From: Veillonella parvula
GTDB taxonomy: Bacteria > Bacillota > Negativicutes > Veillonellales > Veillonellaceae
Assembly: GCF_032575955.1 (NCBI RefSeq)
Contig: NZ_JAWFXN010000002.1
Span: 159,458-223,457 of the forward strand
Direction: 5' to 3'
DNA: 64,000 nt
The notes under the pieces are model-generated. The model saw only the letters and a program-made list of their open reading frames with translations. It made no database searches and was not told the origin of the DNA. Position numbers and translations under genes: made by a program. Positions 500 to 6,689 of this stretch are shown one piece after another (within the stretch, counting starts at the first letter, position 1; each line of letters starts with the position of its first letter).

Positions 500-1276
500 T
501 TATGATTGATGTTGTGTTTTGATGGGACTCCACCAATGGCGTCTATAGGCCTTGATGCCTTCCACCACGGTTCTTGTCGCCTTAGCTGCAATATCTTTCG
601 TTGCAGCTGGGATGCCCTCTAGGCGATAAGGAATACCTAACTCCTTATATTTAGCAATACCCATAACGTGATAAGGTAAGCAATCAACGGCTTGTAAATT
701 TTTCAGAGATCCTAGAAAAAAGCCTAGACGATAGTGACGATCGGCATTATCTGTAATCGTAGGGACTACTACGTGACGAACCCAAATCGGAACTTCCACG
801 TCTGCCGTCAATCGAGCAAACCCGAGAATGGGCTCTAACGGTTTACCTGTTAACCATAAATGCTTGGCTGGATCGATTTCCTTAATGTCTAGGATGACGA
901 GACTAGTCACACTGAGTAATTTACGGTATGCCACCTCTTGGTGGGGGTCAAAACAAATTCCACTTGTATCTAAACAGGTATGGACGTTTCTTTCACGGAA
1001 ATATGTGAAAAGCTCAATAACAAAGTCGATTTGCATAAGAGCTTCCCCACCTGTGACGGTGATACCACCATTAGTATAAAATTGGCGGTTACGTTCGTAC
1101 TGGTCCCATAATTCCTTTACGGTCATGAATTTAGCATTATCGCTAGTTTCATCCCATGTGTCAGGATTATGGCAATAAGCACAGCGCATGGGGCATCCTT
1201 GAAGAAATACCACCATGCGCATGCCTGGACCATCAACCGTACCCATCGTTTCAACCGAATGAATACGTCCAGTCAT
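500..1276 (-). CDS. pflA: Pyruvate formate-lyase activating enzyme (radical SAM)
   Basis: 258 aa. It has the N-terminal GxVDGPGxR motif and the CPMRCAYCHN CxxxCxxC cluster. It starts 12 nt downstream of the glycyl-radical ORF with a GAGG SD. Confidence 0.9.
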   Translation of the reverse strand: MTGRIHSVETMGTVDGPGMRMVVFLQGCPMRCAYCHNPDTWDETSDNAKFMTVKELWDQYERNRQFYTNGGITVTGGEALMQIDFVIELFTYFRERNVHTCLDTSGICFDPHQEVAYRKLLSVTSLVILDIKEIDPAKHLWLTGKPLEPILGFARLTADVEVPIWVRHVVVPTITDNADRHYRLGFFLGSLKNLQAVDCLPYHVMGIAKYKELGIPYRLEGIPAATKDIAAKATRTVVEGIKAYRRHWWSPIKTQHQS

Positions 1277-1288
1277 AGGAAACCTCGA

Positions 1289-1525
1289 TTAGATACGTTG
1301 ATGGAATGTACGGGAAATAACTTCGTCCTGTTGTTGTTTTGTCAATTTGTTGAAGTGCACCGCATAACCGGATACACGAATCGTCAATTGAGGGTACAAC
1401 TCAGGATGTTTTTGAGCGTCTAACAATGTTTCACGAGTGAACACGTTAACGTTCAAATGATGGCCGCCCTTTTGGGAATAACCATCCAATAACTCTACCA
1501 AGTTATCAACTTGTTGGTTGCTCAT
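1289..1525 (-). CDS. Stand-alone glycyl-radical domain protein. It is GrcA/YfiD-like and equivalent to the C-terminal ~60 residues of PflB.
   Basis: 78 aa containing [10 protein letters not shown]...[15 protein letters not shown], the glycyl-radical fingerprint. It has its own AAAGGAGG SD 7 nt upstream of the ATG. Confidence 0.85.
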
Positions 1526-1600
1526 GGGTATAACCTCCTTTCAACCAAGACTAACACACGTATCGGTGCCGGTGAAAGCAATCCGATACTGTGGAAGATT

Positions 1601-3718
1601 TTATTTATCTTCCTCTATAGTAACATTTGGTTCACTGCATGCGAAGTTTGTATTGCTGTTAGGCAATTGAGATGGATCTAACTCAATATCAAAATCGCTA
1701 ACGGAAACAAATGTTTCACCAGATTTACCTAATGCGTCCGGAATGATAGAGAAGGTATTAGAAATACCATCGGAGCAATCACGCCATGGCATTTTAGCTA
1801 CGGATGCCAATGAAGATACGGCACCGTGAGAATCACGACCGTGCATTGGGTTCGCGCCAGGAGCGAAAGCTTCGCCAGCTTTACGGCCGTCTGGAGTAGA
1901 ACCTGTAGCAGTACCATATACTACGTTGGAAGTAATTGTTAACAAGCTCATAGTAGGAACGGATTGACGATATGTAGGATGTTTACGAATTTTGTTCATA
2001 AATGTGGAAACAACTTTTGCTGCCAAGCCATCTACACGGTCATCATCGTTACCATATTTAGGGAAGTCGCCTTCGATTTCGAAATCGACAGCGATGCCAT
2101 TTTCATCACGAATAGGTTTTACTTTAGCATATTTAATAGCGGATAAGGAGTCTGCTACTACGGATAAACCAGCGATACCAGTTGCAAACCAACGAGTTAC
2201 CTTGCGGTCATGCAAGGCCATTTCTAGTTTTTCATAAGCATATTTATCGTGCATGTAGTGAATGATGTTTAATGCATTTACATATACGCCTGCCAACCAT
2301 TCCATCATGTCGTCGAATTTTTCCCATACTTCGTCGAATTCTAAGTATTCGGAAGTGATAGGACGGTATTTAGGACCAATTTGTTTCTTCAACTTTTCGT
2401 CAACACCGCCATTGATTGCGTAAAGCAAGCATTTAGCTAAGTTGGAACGAGCACCGAAGAATTGCATTTCTTTACCAATACGCATTGGGGATACGCAACA
2501 TGCGATTGCGTAGTCATCACCAGAGTTAGGGCGCATCAATTCATCATTCTCGTATTGAATGGAAGATGTTTCAATGGATAATTTTGCGCAGAAACGGCGG
2601 AAGCCGATCGGCATGCGAGGGGACCATAATACAGTGAGGTTTGGTTCTGGAGCAGGACCAAGATTAGTCAATGTATGTAGGTAACGGAAGGACATCTTGG
2701 AAACCAATGTACGGCCGTCAGTACCCATACCACCGATGGATTCAGTCGTCCAAACAGGGTCACCTGTGAACAAATTGTTGTATTCGTGGATACGTGCGAA
2801 GCGAACCATACGCAATTTCATGATGAAATGATCTACGAATTCCTGGATTTGCTCTTCTGTGTATGTGCCGTTGCGAAGGTCTCGTTCCGCATAGATATCG
2901 AGGAATGTGGAGTTACGGCCGATGGACATAGCAGCACCGTTTTGCTCTTTAATGGCACCAAGATAGCCGAAGTAAATCCATTGCATAGCTTCACGAACAT
3001 CCTTAGCTGGTTTGGAAATATCATAGCCATAGGACGCTGCCATCTCTTTCAATTCTTTCAAAGAACGGATTTGATCTTGTATTTCTTCACGGTCGCGAAT
3101 GACATCCTCTAGCATGTCACCCATTGTGATGCTAAATTGTTCTTTTTTATCTTCAATGAGATAATCAACACCGTAAAGAGCGATACGGCGATAGTCACCG
3201 ATAATACGACCGCGGCTGTACGCATCTGGCAAACCAGTTACAATATGAGCTGTACGTGCAGCACGCATTTCTGGAGTATATACATCAAATACGCCATCAT
3301 TGTGAGTTTTGCGATGTTTCTTGAAGAAGTCCTCTGTTTGCGGATCCATTTTGAATCCGTATTCTTCGATAGCGGATTTTGCCGTACGCAAACCACCATA
3401 TGGGAACATAGCGCGTTTCAAAGGTTTGTCAGTTTGCAAACCAACGATTGTTTCAAGGTCTTTGTCGATATATCCTGGCGCATGGGCAGTAATGTGTGTG
3501 GCCACAGAAGTATCAGCATCGAGCATGCCGCCTTTTTCACGTTCTTCTTCATAAAGCTTCATTACTTGTTCCCACAATTTTGTTGTTCGTTCTGTAGGAC
3601 CAGCAAGGAAGGAATCGTCCCCTTCATAGGGAATATAGTTTCTTTGAATAAAGTCGCGTACATCAACGGCTTTATCCCACACACCTGTGTTAAAATCTTT
3701 CCATGCAGTATGTTGCAT
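1601..3718 (-). CDS. pflB: Formate C-acetyltransferase (pyruvate formate-lyase) core lacking the glycyl-radical domain
   Basis: 706 aa from ATG 3718 with a GGAGGTG SD. It is colinear with the PflB family and includes the catalytic Cys-Cys motif (AIACCVSPM). It ends in a 37-aa non-homologous tail immediately after ...PDALGKSGE. Confidence 0.9.
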
Positions 3719-4217
3719 TTTGCACCTCCATAAAAGGATATAACTATAGATTTCTATGCCTATAGTGTACAATGTTTGTAACAATTCCACAATGAATAGA
3801 TGATATAGATTTTCAATACATACTATGCGATTTTGTGAAGTATCTCATAAACTTCCATAAGCTAAATTGTTTGAATACACCAGTATATATAGGTTTGTAT
3901 GAGTTTTTGCTTTTTGTGATTTTATTTAATGTATATATAATAATATGAAATTGCATATCAATATTGTTAAGAAGTCTTGGATACTGATTTTTATTAATAA
4001 TATTGGATAGCTTATATTTGTGTATAGTTCAAGCGGTCGTTTACATCTTGTACAGAATTAGCCTGTAAGTCTTTATAAATGCACGTATATTGTGATGCTA
4101 CGGAACGTTGCTGGACAAGAAAACAAGCGTTTCTTTTCTTCATTGATACTATGTACTATACTCTGAGCAGCTCTTGTTGAAGAGTAACTGATATTGCCTA
4201 AAATAGGAGGTCACATT

Positions 4218-5090
4218 ATGGATTTTAATGAAAAATTACGGGAGTATAGAAAACAATTCGGATTATCTCAGGGAAAATTGGCGGAAACGCTCAATGTGTC
4301 AAGACAGGCCATAACAAAATGGGAATCGGGCAATGGGATGCCGGATATTTCGAATTTAAAGGCTCTTTCAGGTGTATTCCATGTCTCTGTGGATGAATTA
4401 CTTTCAGAAGAAGCGGTTAAACCTCGATATCCTTATGAAAGTATTGTAGAATACGATATCGATGAGATAAAACATTTCGACATTAAACTGGGTTCTGTTA
4501 ATCGCGTAAAAATGAGAGCTGGAGAGGGTGAGAAGATAAAGGTTCAACTGGTCAGTGATACTATTGAAAATTTGACGGAACTGGTGAAAGTAAAAATCGA
4601 TGATATCAAAAGGCGTATCGATGTGGATGTAAATCGTTCCAAATCCTTATGTGAAGAGCTTGTAAAAGAACATCTGTCGATTTTTATAAATTTGCCTGAA
4701 AAATATATGGGAGATACGGAGTTAGCGACCCATTGTGAGAAACTGGAGCTATTTGATATTATTAGTGAAAAGTTTGAGCTAGATGGAGAGGCTAAAGAAA
4801 TTTATATTGCCGGCGGTAACAGTCATATAGAGTTGGATAACAACTCTCCAATGGAGATATATATAGCGGATTATACGGGGCGAATTGATGTGAATCAGAT
4901 ATCGGCGAAATCTCGGCTGCATGTCCCTCACGAGTATGCTTTCAAAGCGGTGAAAAAAGGTATTCGCACTAAATTGCTCTTTGAAGATCGTGGACATCTT
5001 GTAGACGATTTTTCTGTGTCTGAATCAGAAAATCAAATTGAAATTAATGGAATCAATAGTGAACTTACAATAGTCAAGTTAAGTGAATAG
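4218..5090 (+). CDS. XRE-family HTH protein with a beta-strand-rich C-terminal domain (DUF4097/toastrack-like, tentative)
   Basis: AGGAGG SD 7 nt before ATG 4218. The N-terminus LSQGKLAETLNVSRQAITKWESG is a classic HTH_3 motif. The C-terminal 200 aa are repetitive beta-type sequence. Confidence 0.7.
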   Translation: MDFNEKLREYRKQFGLSQGKLAETLNVSRQAITKWESGNGMPDISNLKALSGVFHVSVDELLSEEAVKPRYPYESIVEYDIDEIKHFDIKLGSVNRVKMRAGEGEKIKVQLVSDTIENLTELVKVKIDDIKRRIDVDVNRSKSLCEELVKEHLSIFINLPEKYMGDTELATHCEKLELFDIISEKFELDGEAKEIYIAGGNSHIELDNNSPMEIYIADYTGRIDVNQISAKSRLHVPHEYAFKAVKKGIRTKLLFEDRGHLVDDFSVSESENQIEINGINSELTIVKLSE

Positions 5091-5120
5091 TTGTATTAAT
5101 TATATGGACATATTTGCTAC

Positions 5121-5225
5121 ATAGTTTTCATAAAGCGTTATTATTTGTTCCAACGACTTTGTTACACATTTTGTAGGTCCCATAAGGAAGAAATCATCCC
5201 CTTCATAGGAATAAAAAGTATGATT
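5121..5225 (-). pseudogene. Relic of the N-terminal region of a PFL-like glycyl-radical enzyme
   Basis: The minus-strand translation NHTFYSYEGDDFFLMGPTKCVTKSLEQIITLYENY aligns with PflB residues [34 protein letters not shown]. By eye, the nucleotide similarity to 3555-3645 is clearly above chance. Stops flank it on both sides. Confidence 0.55.
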
Positions 5226-5403
5226 TAATTTATTGTAGTGTTAGGGGTATATTATGGTACTATTGAGATAGTGTTATTAAGCTATAAAACATGTAGATAA
5301 CATGATCTTGGTAGAATGAATCAAAATAGAAATAATTTGGATAGAATATACGTTAATCAAAGTGGATTATAAGATCGTATAGGCGAATACTATTGAAAGG
5401 CGG

Positions 5404-6276
5404 ATGTTAATGACAAATCGAAAGAAAGCACTTTTAGGTGCATCTGCTACAATTGCTGTATGGGCTACTGCATTTCCTTTCAGTAAAATAGCATTACAAT
5501 CCGTAGATTCATTAACACTTTCTGTGGCAAGGGTTATGGGTGGGGCCTTACTTATGCTGGTAATCGGTGTTGTAAAAGGCTTACACATACCGACAACATG
5601 GCGTGAGTGGGGACTATATATTCTGTTAGGCGCCACAGGGAATTTTGTTTACCAAGTTGTTTTTAATGAAGGTTTGCGCACAATTCCGGCGGCCACATCC
5701 AGTATTATTATGGCTTTGACTCCGATGACGACGGCACTGATGGCCATGATTGTTTATAAAGATAAAATACGCCCCATAGGCTGGTTATTTACAATAACAG
5801 CTTTTATAGGTGTAGCCATAATTATTCTTTGGAATTCAACCCTTACAATTCCTACAGGTGCATTATGGACTTTGCTGGGGATGATACTCTTTGCAGTTTA
5901 TAATATCCTAAATCGTGGCCTTAGTTTAAAAGGATGTAAGCCTATCACTATCGCCATGTGGTCTATGTTTACAGGTGCCATTATGGCTTTGCCTTTTGCG
6001 GAACATGCCATTGAAATGATTGCTGTGGCACCGATTAGTGCAAAATTTGCCATGGCCTATTTAGCATTTCTTTCTAGTGCGTTAGGCTTTGTTTTCTGGA
6101 GCTATGCCTTGGAACATGCGGAAAAGGTTTCAGATGTAACCAACTTTATGTATATCTCGCCCATAGTGGCAGCTATTGTAGCCGCATTTTTATTGGGAGA
6201 AATTCCTAATATGGGGCTCTATATTGGGGCACCTATCATTTTGGGGTCATTATTCTTGTTTAATCGATTTAGGTGA
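5404..6276 (+). CDS. EamA/DMT-family transporter
   Basis: 290 aa with about 10 predicted TM helices and two EamA-like halves. Confidence 0.8.
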   Translation: MLMTNRKKALLGASATIAVWATAFPFSKIALQSVDSLTLSVARVMGGALLMLVIGVVKGLHIPTTWREWGLYILLGATGNFVYQVVFNEGLRTIPAATSSIIMALTPMTTALMAMIVYKDKIRPIGWLFTITAFIGVAIIILWNSTLTIPTGALWTLLGMILFAVYNILNRGLSLKGCKPITIAMWSMFTGAIMALPFAEHAIEMIAVAPISAKFAMAYLAFLSSALGFVFWSYALEHAEKVSDVTNFMYISPIVAAIVAAFLLGEIPNMGLYIGAPIILGSLFLFNRFR

Positions 6277-6383: not shown

Positions 6384-6689
6384 TTATACTGTCATTCCTG
6401 CAGCATAGTTTTCATATAGTTCTTTATAGTGACCACCGCGTTTGATGAGTTCGTGGTGTGTTCCTTGTTCTGTGATAGTGCCGGTAAAAATCCAAGTATC
6501 TTGCAGTACCATGCCTACCGTTTTGTGTAAGCTTTCACGAGATACGTCGCGAATATCTACGCCATCGTTGATGATTGTGGCCGTTAAGGTTGGTATATAT
6601 AATGTGCCTGCCACGGTGAGTAACGAAAGAATTGATATGATGATGACTGGAAACCATAAAGATTTTATATAGCGTATAAAAGGTTTCAT
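6384..6689 (-). pseudogene. Internally deleted ABC exporter (fused TMD-NBD type) remnant
   Basis: The 101-aa ORF joins the first TM helix of an ABC exporter (MKPFIRYIKSLWFPVIIISILSLLTVAGTLYIPTLTATIINDGV) directly to NBD pieces (DIRDVSRESLHKTVGMVLQDTWIFTGTI and EQGTHHELIKRGGHYKELYENY). Walker A, the signature motif and Walker B are missing. Confidence 0.6.

Follow-up and report, generated by a model that had tools for sequence, protein, structure and literature searches.

Organization of the locus

The DNA analysed here, referred to as the window, is a stretch of 64,000 nucleotides of Veillonella parvula (assembly GCF_032575955.1, contig NZ_JAWFXN010000002.1), and the system in question is its locus for pyruvate formate-lyase (PFL), a glycyl radical enzyme (GRE). 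Three open reading frames (ORFs) follow each other head to tail on the minus strand: (i) the pflB core, 1601-3718; (ii) an ORF of 78 aa, 1289-1525; (iii) pflA, 500-1276. The proteins of the locus are 100% identical to those of V. parvula genomes.

The core (705 aa plus the stop codon) carries the PFL catalytic barrel, the catalytic Cys-Cys motif IACCVS, the first half of the glycyl radical domain (GRD) and, at its C-terminal end, a 37-aa tail (TFVS...EEDK, coding region 1604-1714) closed by a TAA codon. The original prediction, made from the sequence alone, had these coordinates and this tail right, and counted one residue too many for the core (706 aa). An intercistronic spacer of 75 nt follows (1526-1600, minus strand), with two hairpins, a Shine-Dalgarno (SD) sequence and a possible third stem. 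The 78-aa ORF bears the second half of the GRD, including RVSGYAV. The pflA gene starts 12 nt past the stop codon of the small ORF and encodes a radical-SAM PFL activating enzyme of 258 aa (TIGR02493, 273.9 bits for a cutoff of 231.75; Radical_SAM and Fer4_12 in Pfam), whose radical-SAM motif is CPMRCAYC, i.e., CX3CX2C.

In Pfam, the core matches PFL-like (PF02901) with an E of 1e-221 and only positions 1-51 of the 106 positions of the Gly_radical profile, while the 78-aa ORF matches positions 51-106 of the same profile. In TIGR01255 (744 positions) the core matches positions 1-665 (1098.9 bits for a cutoff of 994.2) and the 78-aa ORF positions 664-743. Pfam and TIGRFAM matches are both cut exactly where the ORFs part. 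On alignment with E. coli PFL (1h16), the core covers residues 9-680 and the small ORF covers 683-757, thus the break falls about 54 residues before Gly734. Judged by its sequence, the core stops at that distance ahead of the radical glycine and retains the ten-stranded barrel and the Cys-Cys pair. The motifs are intact: IACCVS in the core, RVSGYAV in the small ORF and CX3CX2C in PflA. The RVSGYAV radical loop, which goes with membership of the PFL family, is not on the core polypeptide and sits on the separate 78-aa ORF. We consider it likely, with a probability of about 0.8, that the locus is a three-gene operon (pflB-core, grcA3, pflA) in which PFL is built from two polypeptides.

The 78-aa protein is a member of the NCBIfam family NF038360, «autonomous glycyl radical cofactor GrcA3» (165.4 bits for a cutoff of 158, match 2-78 of 78), and its homologues from Veillonella and Clostridia are named GrcA3 in NCBI records. 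It falls outside the GrcA family, whose proteins measure about 127 aa and carry a further region N-terminal to the GRD: the GrcA/YfiD profile TIGR04365 gives 96.9 bits for a cutoff of 170, over positions 64-125 of 126.

Conservation and selection

A scan with one genome per bacterial species returned 80 loci, i.e., 78 from Veillonella or Veillonellaceae, one from a Lachnospiraceae metagenome-assembled genome (MAG) and one from an Eubacteriales MAG. The RVSGY-bearing ORF is a separate protein of 78-82 aa, downstream of a truncated core, in 78/80 loci; the two remaining contigs end ahead of the small ORF. No fused PFL is encoded among the 80 loci. Wherever a retrieved Veillonella locus extends as far as the junction, it has the split. 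The comparison with related genomes, proposed at the outset as a check, thus gives a split that is kept throughout, with no uninterrupted junction found.

Pairwise Nei-Gojobori estimates put dN/dS at 0.02-0.05 in the core and at 0.02-0.085 in the small ORF, the tail having 0.08-0.3, and synonymous sites are saturated between deep Veillonella clades. Such low values together with saturated synonymous sites indicate that the arrangement is older than the radiation of the genus, and that core, tail and small ORF are all translated and constrained.

Motifs were also searched in metagenomes (241 million records). There, K-S-G-E-Q-Q-[VI]-D-N-L-V, the junction without interruption, has zero occurrences, and the tail motif N-F-A-C-S-E-P-N-V is found on at least 115 contigs. 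Among the 80 contigs retrieved by this tail motif, 74 display the tail, the stop codon, the spacer and the small ORF. Concerning the six others, two are cut by the contig end, three have a visible start of the small ORF that the pattern did not match, and one lacks the motif in translation. As to expression, pflB_2 of V. dispar is up by log2 3.3 in stationary phase (RNA-seq, PMC10100942).

Spacer, hairpins and translation signals

In the window, hairpin 1 (GGAAGAT-N7-ATCTTCC, 1593-1613) spans the stop codon of the core and hairpin 2 (GTATCGG...CCGATAC, 1560-1589) has a loop of 16 nt containing the motif GCTTTCACCGGC (1568-1579). Both hairpins had been predicted, the first one around the stop codon as found, the second one with a loop of 15 nt, i.e., one nucleotide too short. 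The SD sequence AAAGGAGG (1534-1541), the ATG (1523-1525) and the 78-aa ORF lie where the prediction had put them. Folding of the spacer RNA gives the two hairpins and is better than that of shuffled sequences (z = -3.4), and two stem pairs show compensatory changes. No U-tract was found after either hairpin, thus they are not intrinsic terminators. Besides the TAA of the core, a second in-frame stop codon (TGA) lies inside the spacer. A possible additional stem, TTGGTTG/CAACCAA (1514-1548, minus strand), would enclose the SD sequence and the ATG and could adjust how much of the radical subunit is translated. Its sequence does not vary within the parvula/atypica clade, so covariation is uninformative either way.

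The prediction had described an «exactly 198-nt insertion» at 1517-1714, a multiple of three. The arithmetic is right for V. parvula. However, the multiple of three is not conserved: across species the spacer measures 1, 2, 67, 72, 74, 75, 76 or 174 nt, and the frame relations 0, +1 and +2 between core and small ORF all occur. Since length and frame vary between species, the 198 nt and their divisibility by three are a coincidence. Nor is there a discrete insert, the coding part of the interruption (i.e., the tail) being conserved, selected and matched in its motif to a Clostridial ORF described below.

The spacer of 67-75 nt with two hairpins is limited to the parvula/atypica/caviae clade and the hairpins are missing from most lineages; the hairpin spacer is a derived feature of that clade. 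In other Veillonella the spacer is of 1-2 nt and the SD sequence lies within the last codons of the tail. In the ratti/seminalis clade, for example, 1-2 nt separate stop and start, and the last codons of the tail (E-K-E-D-K) contain the SD sequence AAGGAGG, an arrangement of classic translational coupling. The small ORF has its own SD sequence and ATG in every lineage.

A loop motif, GCTTTCACC[GA]GC, is kept in the spacer hairpin of the parvula, atypica, caviae and agrestimuris lineages. In V. absiana, three related copies of it lie in the 174-nt spacer, one of them reduced to CTTTCAC, and the loop motif is also seen in the spacers of loci L040 and L042. In the 64 kb of the window, GCTTTCACCGGC has one exact copy and two copies with one mismatch, and is not a repeat family.

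The tail and the Clostridial middle ORF

The tail is acidic (8 Asp/Glu and 1 Lys), with the conserved blocks GD-x-D-x-[DE]-L-D and N-[FL]-A-C-x-E-P-N-[VI]. In all Veillonella and in two Clostridia MAGs it follows the same broader pattern: acidic residues arranged as [FM]-x-x-x-[GS]-D-x-[DE]-x-[DE]-[LF]-D come first, and N-[FL]-A-C-x-E-P-N-[VIM] closes the tail; residues D10, A28, C29 and P32 are invariant in the alignment.

The distribution outside Veillonella was examined with a Clostridial small subunit as query. The best 120 matches are all proteins of 78-128 aa, some clusters being present on about 1000 contigs, and such stand-alone GRD proteins occur in Eubacterium, Lachnospiraceae, Lachnotalea, Ruminococcus, Oscillospiraceae and Ca. 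Fimimorpha. In all six Clostridial loci inspected the core is cut at the same point (678-700 aa), and in four of them a third, unannotated ORF of 63-73 aa lies between the core and the radical subunit (L081, 3773-3979; L083, 3775-3981; L085, 3789-3980; L087, 3233-3454). The start of this ORF and the stop codon of the core overlap in two lineages (ATGAGTAA, ATGAATGA). Other gene orders are seen as well: core, small subunit and a FocA-like formate channel in L088; core, pflA and small subunit in L089.

This middle ORF opens with 32 residues (I-E-D-I-V-A-M-L-D-Q-F-x-x-x-G-G-G-H-M-N-I) that share homology with the beginning of the GRD (hhalign, E 1e-7 at a probability of 94%), and NF038360 matches the middle ORF weakly (E 0.002). 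Its C-terminus carries an invariant A-C-x-x-P-[NT]-[LM], to which the end of the Veillonella tail aligns (hhalign, E 6e-5, probability 64%). The strong N-terminal match of the middle ORF and the weaker C-terminal match of the tail, taken together, lead to the tail being read as a GRD vestige: it is probably a shrunken, still selected remnant of a degenerate second copy of the radical domain, and not foreign DNA. Following the same sequence comparisons, this degenerate copy is probably a separate ORF of 63-112 aa in some Clostridia, and shortened and fused to the core in Veillonella, L079 and L080.

Structure model

Core, tail and small subunit were modelled with AlphaFold as one chain, with intact PFLs as alignment rows. 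Rows were supplied by a search of a representative library (50% clustering) with the core; the best 150 matches listed were mostly fragments and told little about how far the split extends. The model has a pLDDT of 91.7, with 87-96 for the small domain and values below 50 for residues 668-681 and 683-703 of the tail. It superimposes on E. coli PFL (2pfl) with a TM of 0.94/0.97 and an rmsd of 1.1 A. A canonical fold is thus confidently predicted for core and module modelled together, which speaks for their compatibility and is not a proof of assembly.

Neighbouring features

About 1.4 kb upstream of the pflB core, and outside the working system, the minus strand carries a relic of a PFL N-terminus (5127-5228). 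The relic spans 34 aa with 50% identity to core residues 24-57 (tblastn, E 9e-6), and is present, and drifting, only in genomes of the V. parvula group. The original prediction had rightly noticed a relic here, and had taken it for a second glycyl radical piece; it is a fragment of the N-terminus.

Two other ORFs may be mentioned. An XRE-family HTH protein of 298 aa (4194-5090, plus strand) is divergent from the pfl operon and could be a local regulator. In a 101-aa ORF (6384-6689, minus strand) what looks like the first transmembrane segment of an ABC exporter is joined directly to the extreme C-terminus of its ATPase domain; this ORF may be a deletion remnant.

Alternative explanations

The prediction itself had left room for a joined product or an inactivated gene. 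A removable element or a recoding event (intron, intein, bypass or read-through) would yield one full-length PFL chain, and the V. parvula sequence invites such an idea, both ORFs being in the same frame, with an interruption of 198 nt and two hairpins around the stop codon. The covariance-model search that had been proposed as a check goes against an intron: Rfam, including group I and group II introns, gives no intron match in 1000-5600 at E up to 10, the sole hit being an unrelated sub-threshold match at 5548-5600. An intein was rejected as well, as the only Pfam domains in the core are PFL-like and Gly_radical, with no Hint/intein domain, and a stop codon comes directly after the 37 aa of the tail. 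Programmed frameshift, bypass and read-through do not fit a frame relation that differs between sister species (0, +1 and +2, with spacers of 1-174 nt), an SD sequence and an ATG ahead of every small ORF, a second in-frame stop codon in the spacer, a tail selected as protein, and hairpins absent from most lineages. A single full-length chain is therefore very improbable. A plain pseudogene, or a recent strain-specific disruption by an inserted mobile sequence, is just as hard to credit. The truncated GRD, the non-PFL sequence at the junction and the nearby PFL relic would be in keeping with it; against it, the split is found in every retrieved Veillonella species reaching the junction and in Clostridia, presence is not patchy, all parts are under purifying selection (0.02-0.05 for the core, 0.02-0.085 for the small ORF), the loop motif of the spacer is not a repeat family in the window, and the C-terminal motif of the tail matches the one in a conserved Clostridial ORF.

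The small protein could also be a repair cofactor for a full-length PFL encoded elsewhere, the truncated core then being a secondary or decaying paralogue. This explanation is unlikely, though less so than the preceding ones. The NCBIfam name «rad_fix_GrcA3» implies a repair cofactor, E. coli GrcA offers a precedent, and the PFL N-terminal relic shows a past duplication or rearrangement. However, a core dN/dS of 0.02-0.05 across the genus, with saturated dS, does not fit decay; a truncated core always directly precedes the small ORF, both in Veillonella and in six more loci of Clostridia; and the genome scan ranked no Veillonella locus bearing an intact PFL above the Clostridial split loci, which are 69-70% identical.

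A PFL made of two polypeptides, probably obligately so, with a replaceable radical subunit, is thus the explanation that we retain, at the probability of about 0.8 given above. It draws on conservation across the genus and across classes, on purifying selection, on the SD sequence and ATG proper to the small ORF, and on the AlphaFold fit. In this respect the central claim of the original prediction, i.e., a radical-less core and a separately translated glycyl radical module served by PflA, is supported by the data at hand. Moreover, the core lacks a radical glycine and yet is among the most constrained of the genes compared, which suggests that the 78-aa protein is the regular radical subunit.

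Several points weigh on the other side: (i) that the free subunit takes the radical, that a complex forms and that it has PFL activity is inferred; (ii) the word obligate rests on the strong selection acting on a core that would be unable to hold the radical alone; (iii) the survey covered the retrieved pfl loci, and a second, intact pflB may be encoded elsewhere in Veillonella genomes; (iv) the docking of the small domain is partly built into the model, the alignment rows being intact PFLs; (v) the tail, for which docking or retention of the detachable subunit is the likeliest role, and this is a guess, is predicted to be disordered; (vi) the MAFFT and hhalign registers of the A-C-x-x-P motif against the radical domain differ, only the first 32 columns of the middle ORF being supported, so that any homology of the tail motif to the Gly loop T-I-R-V-S-G-Y is putative, with two possible registers, the radical motif being absent in either.

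Comparison with known systems

To our knowledge, the radical glycine is always on the catalytic chain in characterised GREs, and the only known free radical domains are GrcA/YfiD and T4 Y06I, which are emergency spare parts. Benzylsuccinate synthase (alpha-beta-gamma) and 4-hydroxyphenylacetate decarboxylase (large and small chains) are GREs with a large catalytic chain and small accessory chains. Their radical glycine is on the large chain, whereas that of the Veillonella PFL is on the small one. In E. coli, grcA is unlinked to pflB. The PflB enzyme of E. coli is complete in one piece and makes use of GrcA only once oxygen has damaged it (PMC13450708): as a free GRD activated by the PFL activating enzyme, YfiD/GrcA restores the oxygen-cleaved PFL (PMC13450708). 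A review of the family from 2026 mentions only spare parts of the YfiD type as free radical domains (PMC13450708).

The Veillonella system resembles GrcA/YfiD in that a free homologue of the PFL C-terminal domain would supply the radical glycine to a body lacking one, and the small ORF aligns with YfiD residues 65-125 (6owr). It differs from it in several respects. The core is genetically truncated, and the module is the whole remaining domain, encoded between core and activase and without the N-terminal region of about 60 residues of YfiD; the conserved tail of the core, in addition, is without counterpart in E. coli. The name of NF038360 is that of a repair cofactor and is silent on the truncated partner PFL, the tail and the middle ORF.

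The Clostridial three-piece loci (Ruminococcus sp., Ca. Fimimorpha, Oscillospiraceae, Lachnotalea) are closer. They have the same truncation point and an acidic tail start F-x-G-D-x-D-x-D, their radical subunits (79-80 aa) are 77-81% identical to that of Veillonella, and pflA is usually adjacent. On the contrary, Veillonella keeps only the C-terminal motif of the middle ORF, fused to the core as a tail.

The best sequence matches to the core in the PDB are 38la (1136 bits) and 38lb (1072 bits), both named «Formate acetyltransferase» and from other organisms. Chain 38la_A ends ...SLGKE at the split point. Chain 38lb_A runs on as ALGKSGNVMFGECDMCEM...PDCACAA, with a tail (SGNVMFGECDMCEM...PDCACAA) that contains Cys like those of split cores. 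By their sequences, 38la and 38lb are cores of the split type. The PDB sequence search gave no small-subunit chain of 38la or 38lb matching the 78-aa ORF. Both are absent from a fold library frozen on 2026-04-08 and are thus very recent entries; cores of this kind are evidently under study.

In the library searched, the literature search returned no paper on 38la or 38lb, and none describing GrcA3 or a naturally split, truncated or stand-alone PFL; for the PFL of Veillonella it gave only the RNA-seq paper cited above, which is limited to expression. The original prediction was not aware of a described naturally split PFL; this stands as regards publications, and must be amended for the GrcA3 family (NF038360) and for the split-type PDB cores. 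PFL, a free GRD and the activase were already known; as far as found, no description exists of the fixed genetic split, of the conserved tail or of the middle ORF.

Proposed mechanism and significance

In the mechanism that we propose, PflA would install the radical in trans on the glycine of the small subunit, which would dock in the core at the place taken by the C-terminal domain in a one-piece PFL. Oxygen would cleave the subunit at the glycine, and the cell would then replace the subunit of 78 residues only, which is where a repair advantage may lie. Core, small subunit and activase would stay together through translation that is tight or coupled, and the tail may help to hold or to exchange the subunit.

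A more speculative version, which we consider unlikely, is that of a «radical cartridge» with a built-in dummy: the Veillonella tail, or the Clostridial middle ORF, would be a dead copy of the GRD that holds the core socket or the activase until a fresh, activated 78-aa subunit swaps in. If this were true, radical installation, docking and replacement after oxygen exposure would be separate regulated steps, whereas a one-piece GRE has to manage them all by swinging a tethered domain in and out of position.

If the two-polypeptide reading is true, an always-split PFL would be a natural experiment on the access of the activase to the glycine, for which the radical domain of a one-piece enzyme must leave the barrel. 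It would also show how cheaply an oxygen-cleaved enzyme can be repaired, and how spare-part proteins evolved. The arrangement is common: it is found in every retrieved Veillonella species and in abundant gut lineages of Lachnospiraceae, Oscillospiraceae and Ruminococcus. Its annotation as a «formate C-acetyltransferase» plus a «repair cofactor» would thus mean that a major anaerobic pathway of the human microbiome is incompletely described.

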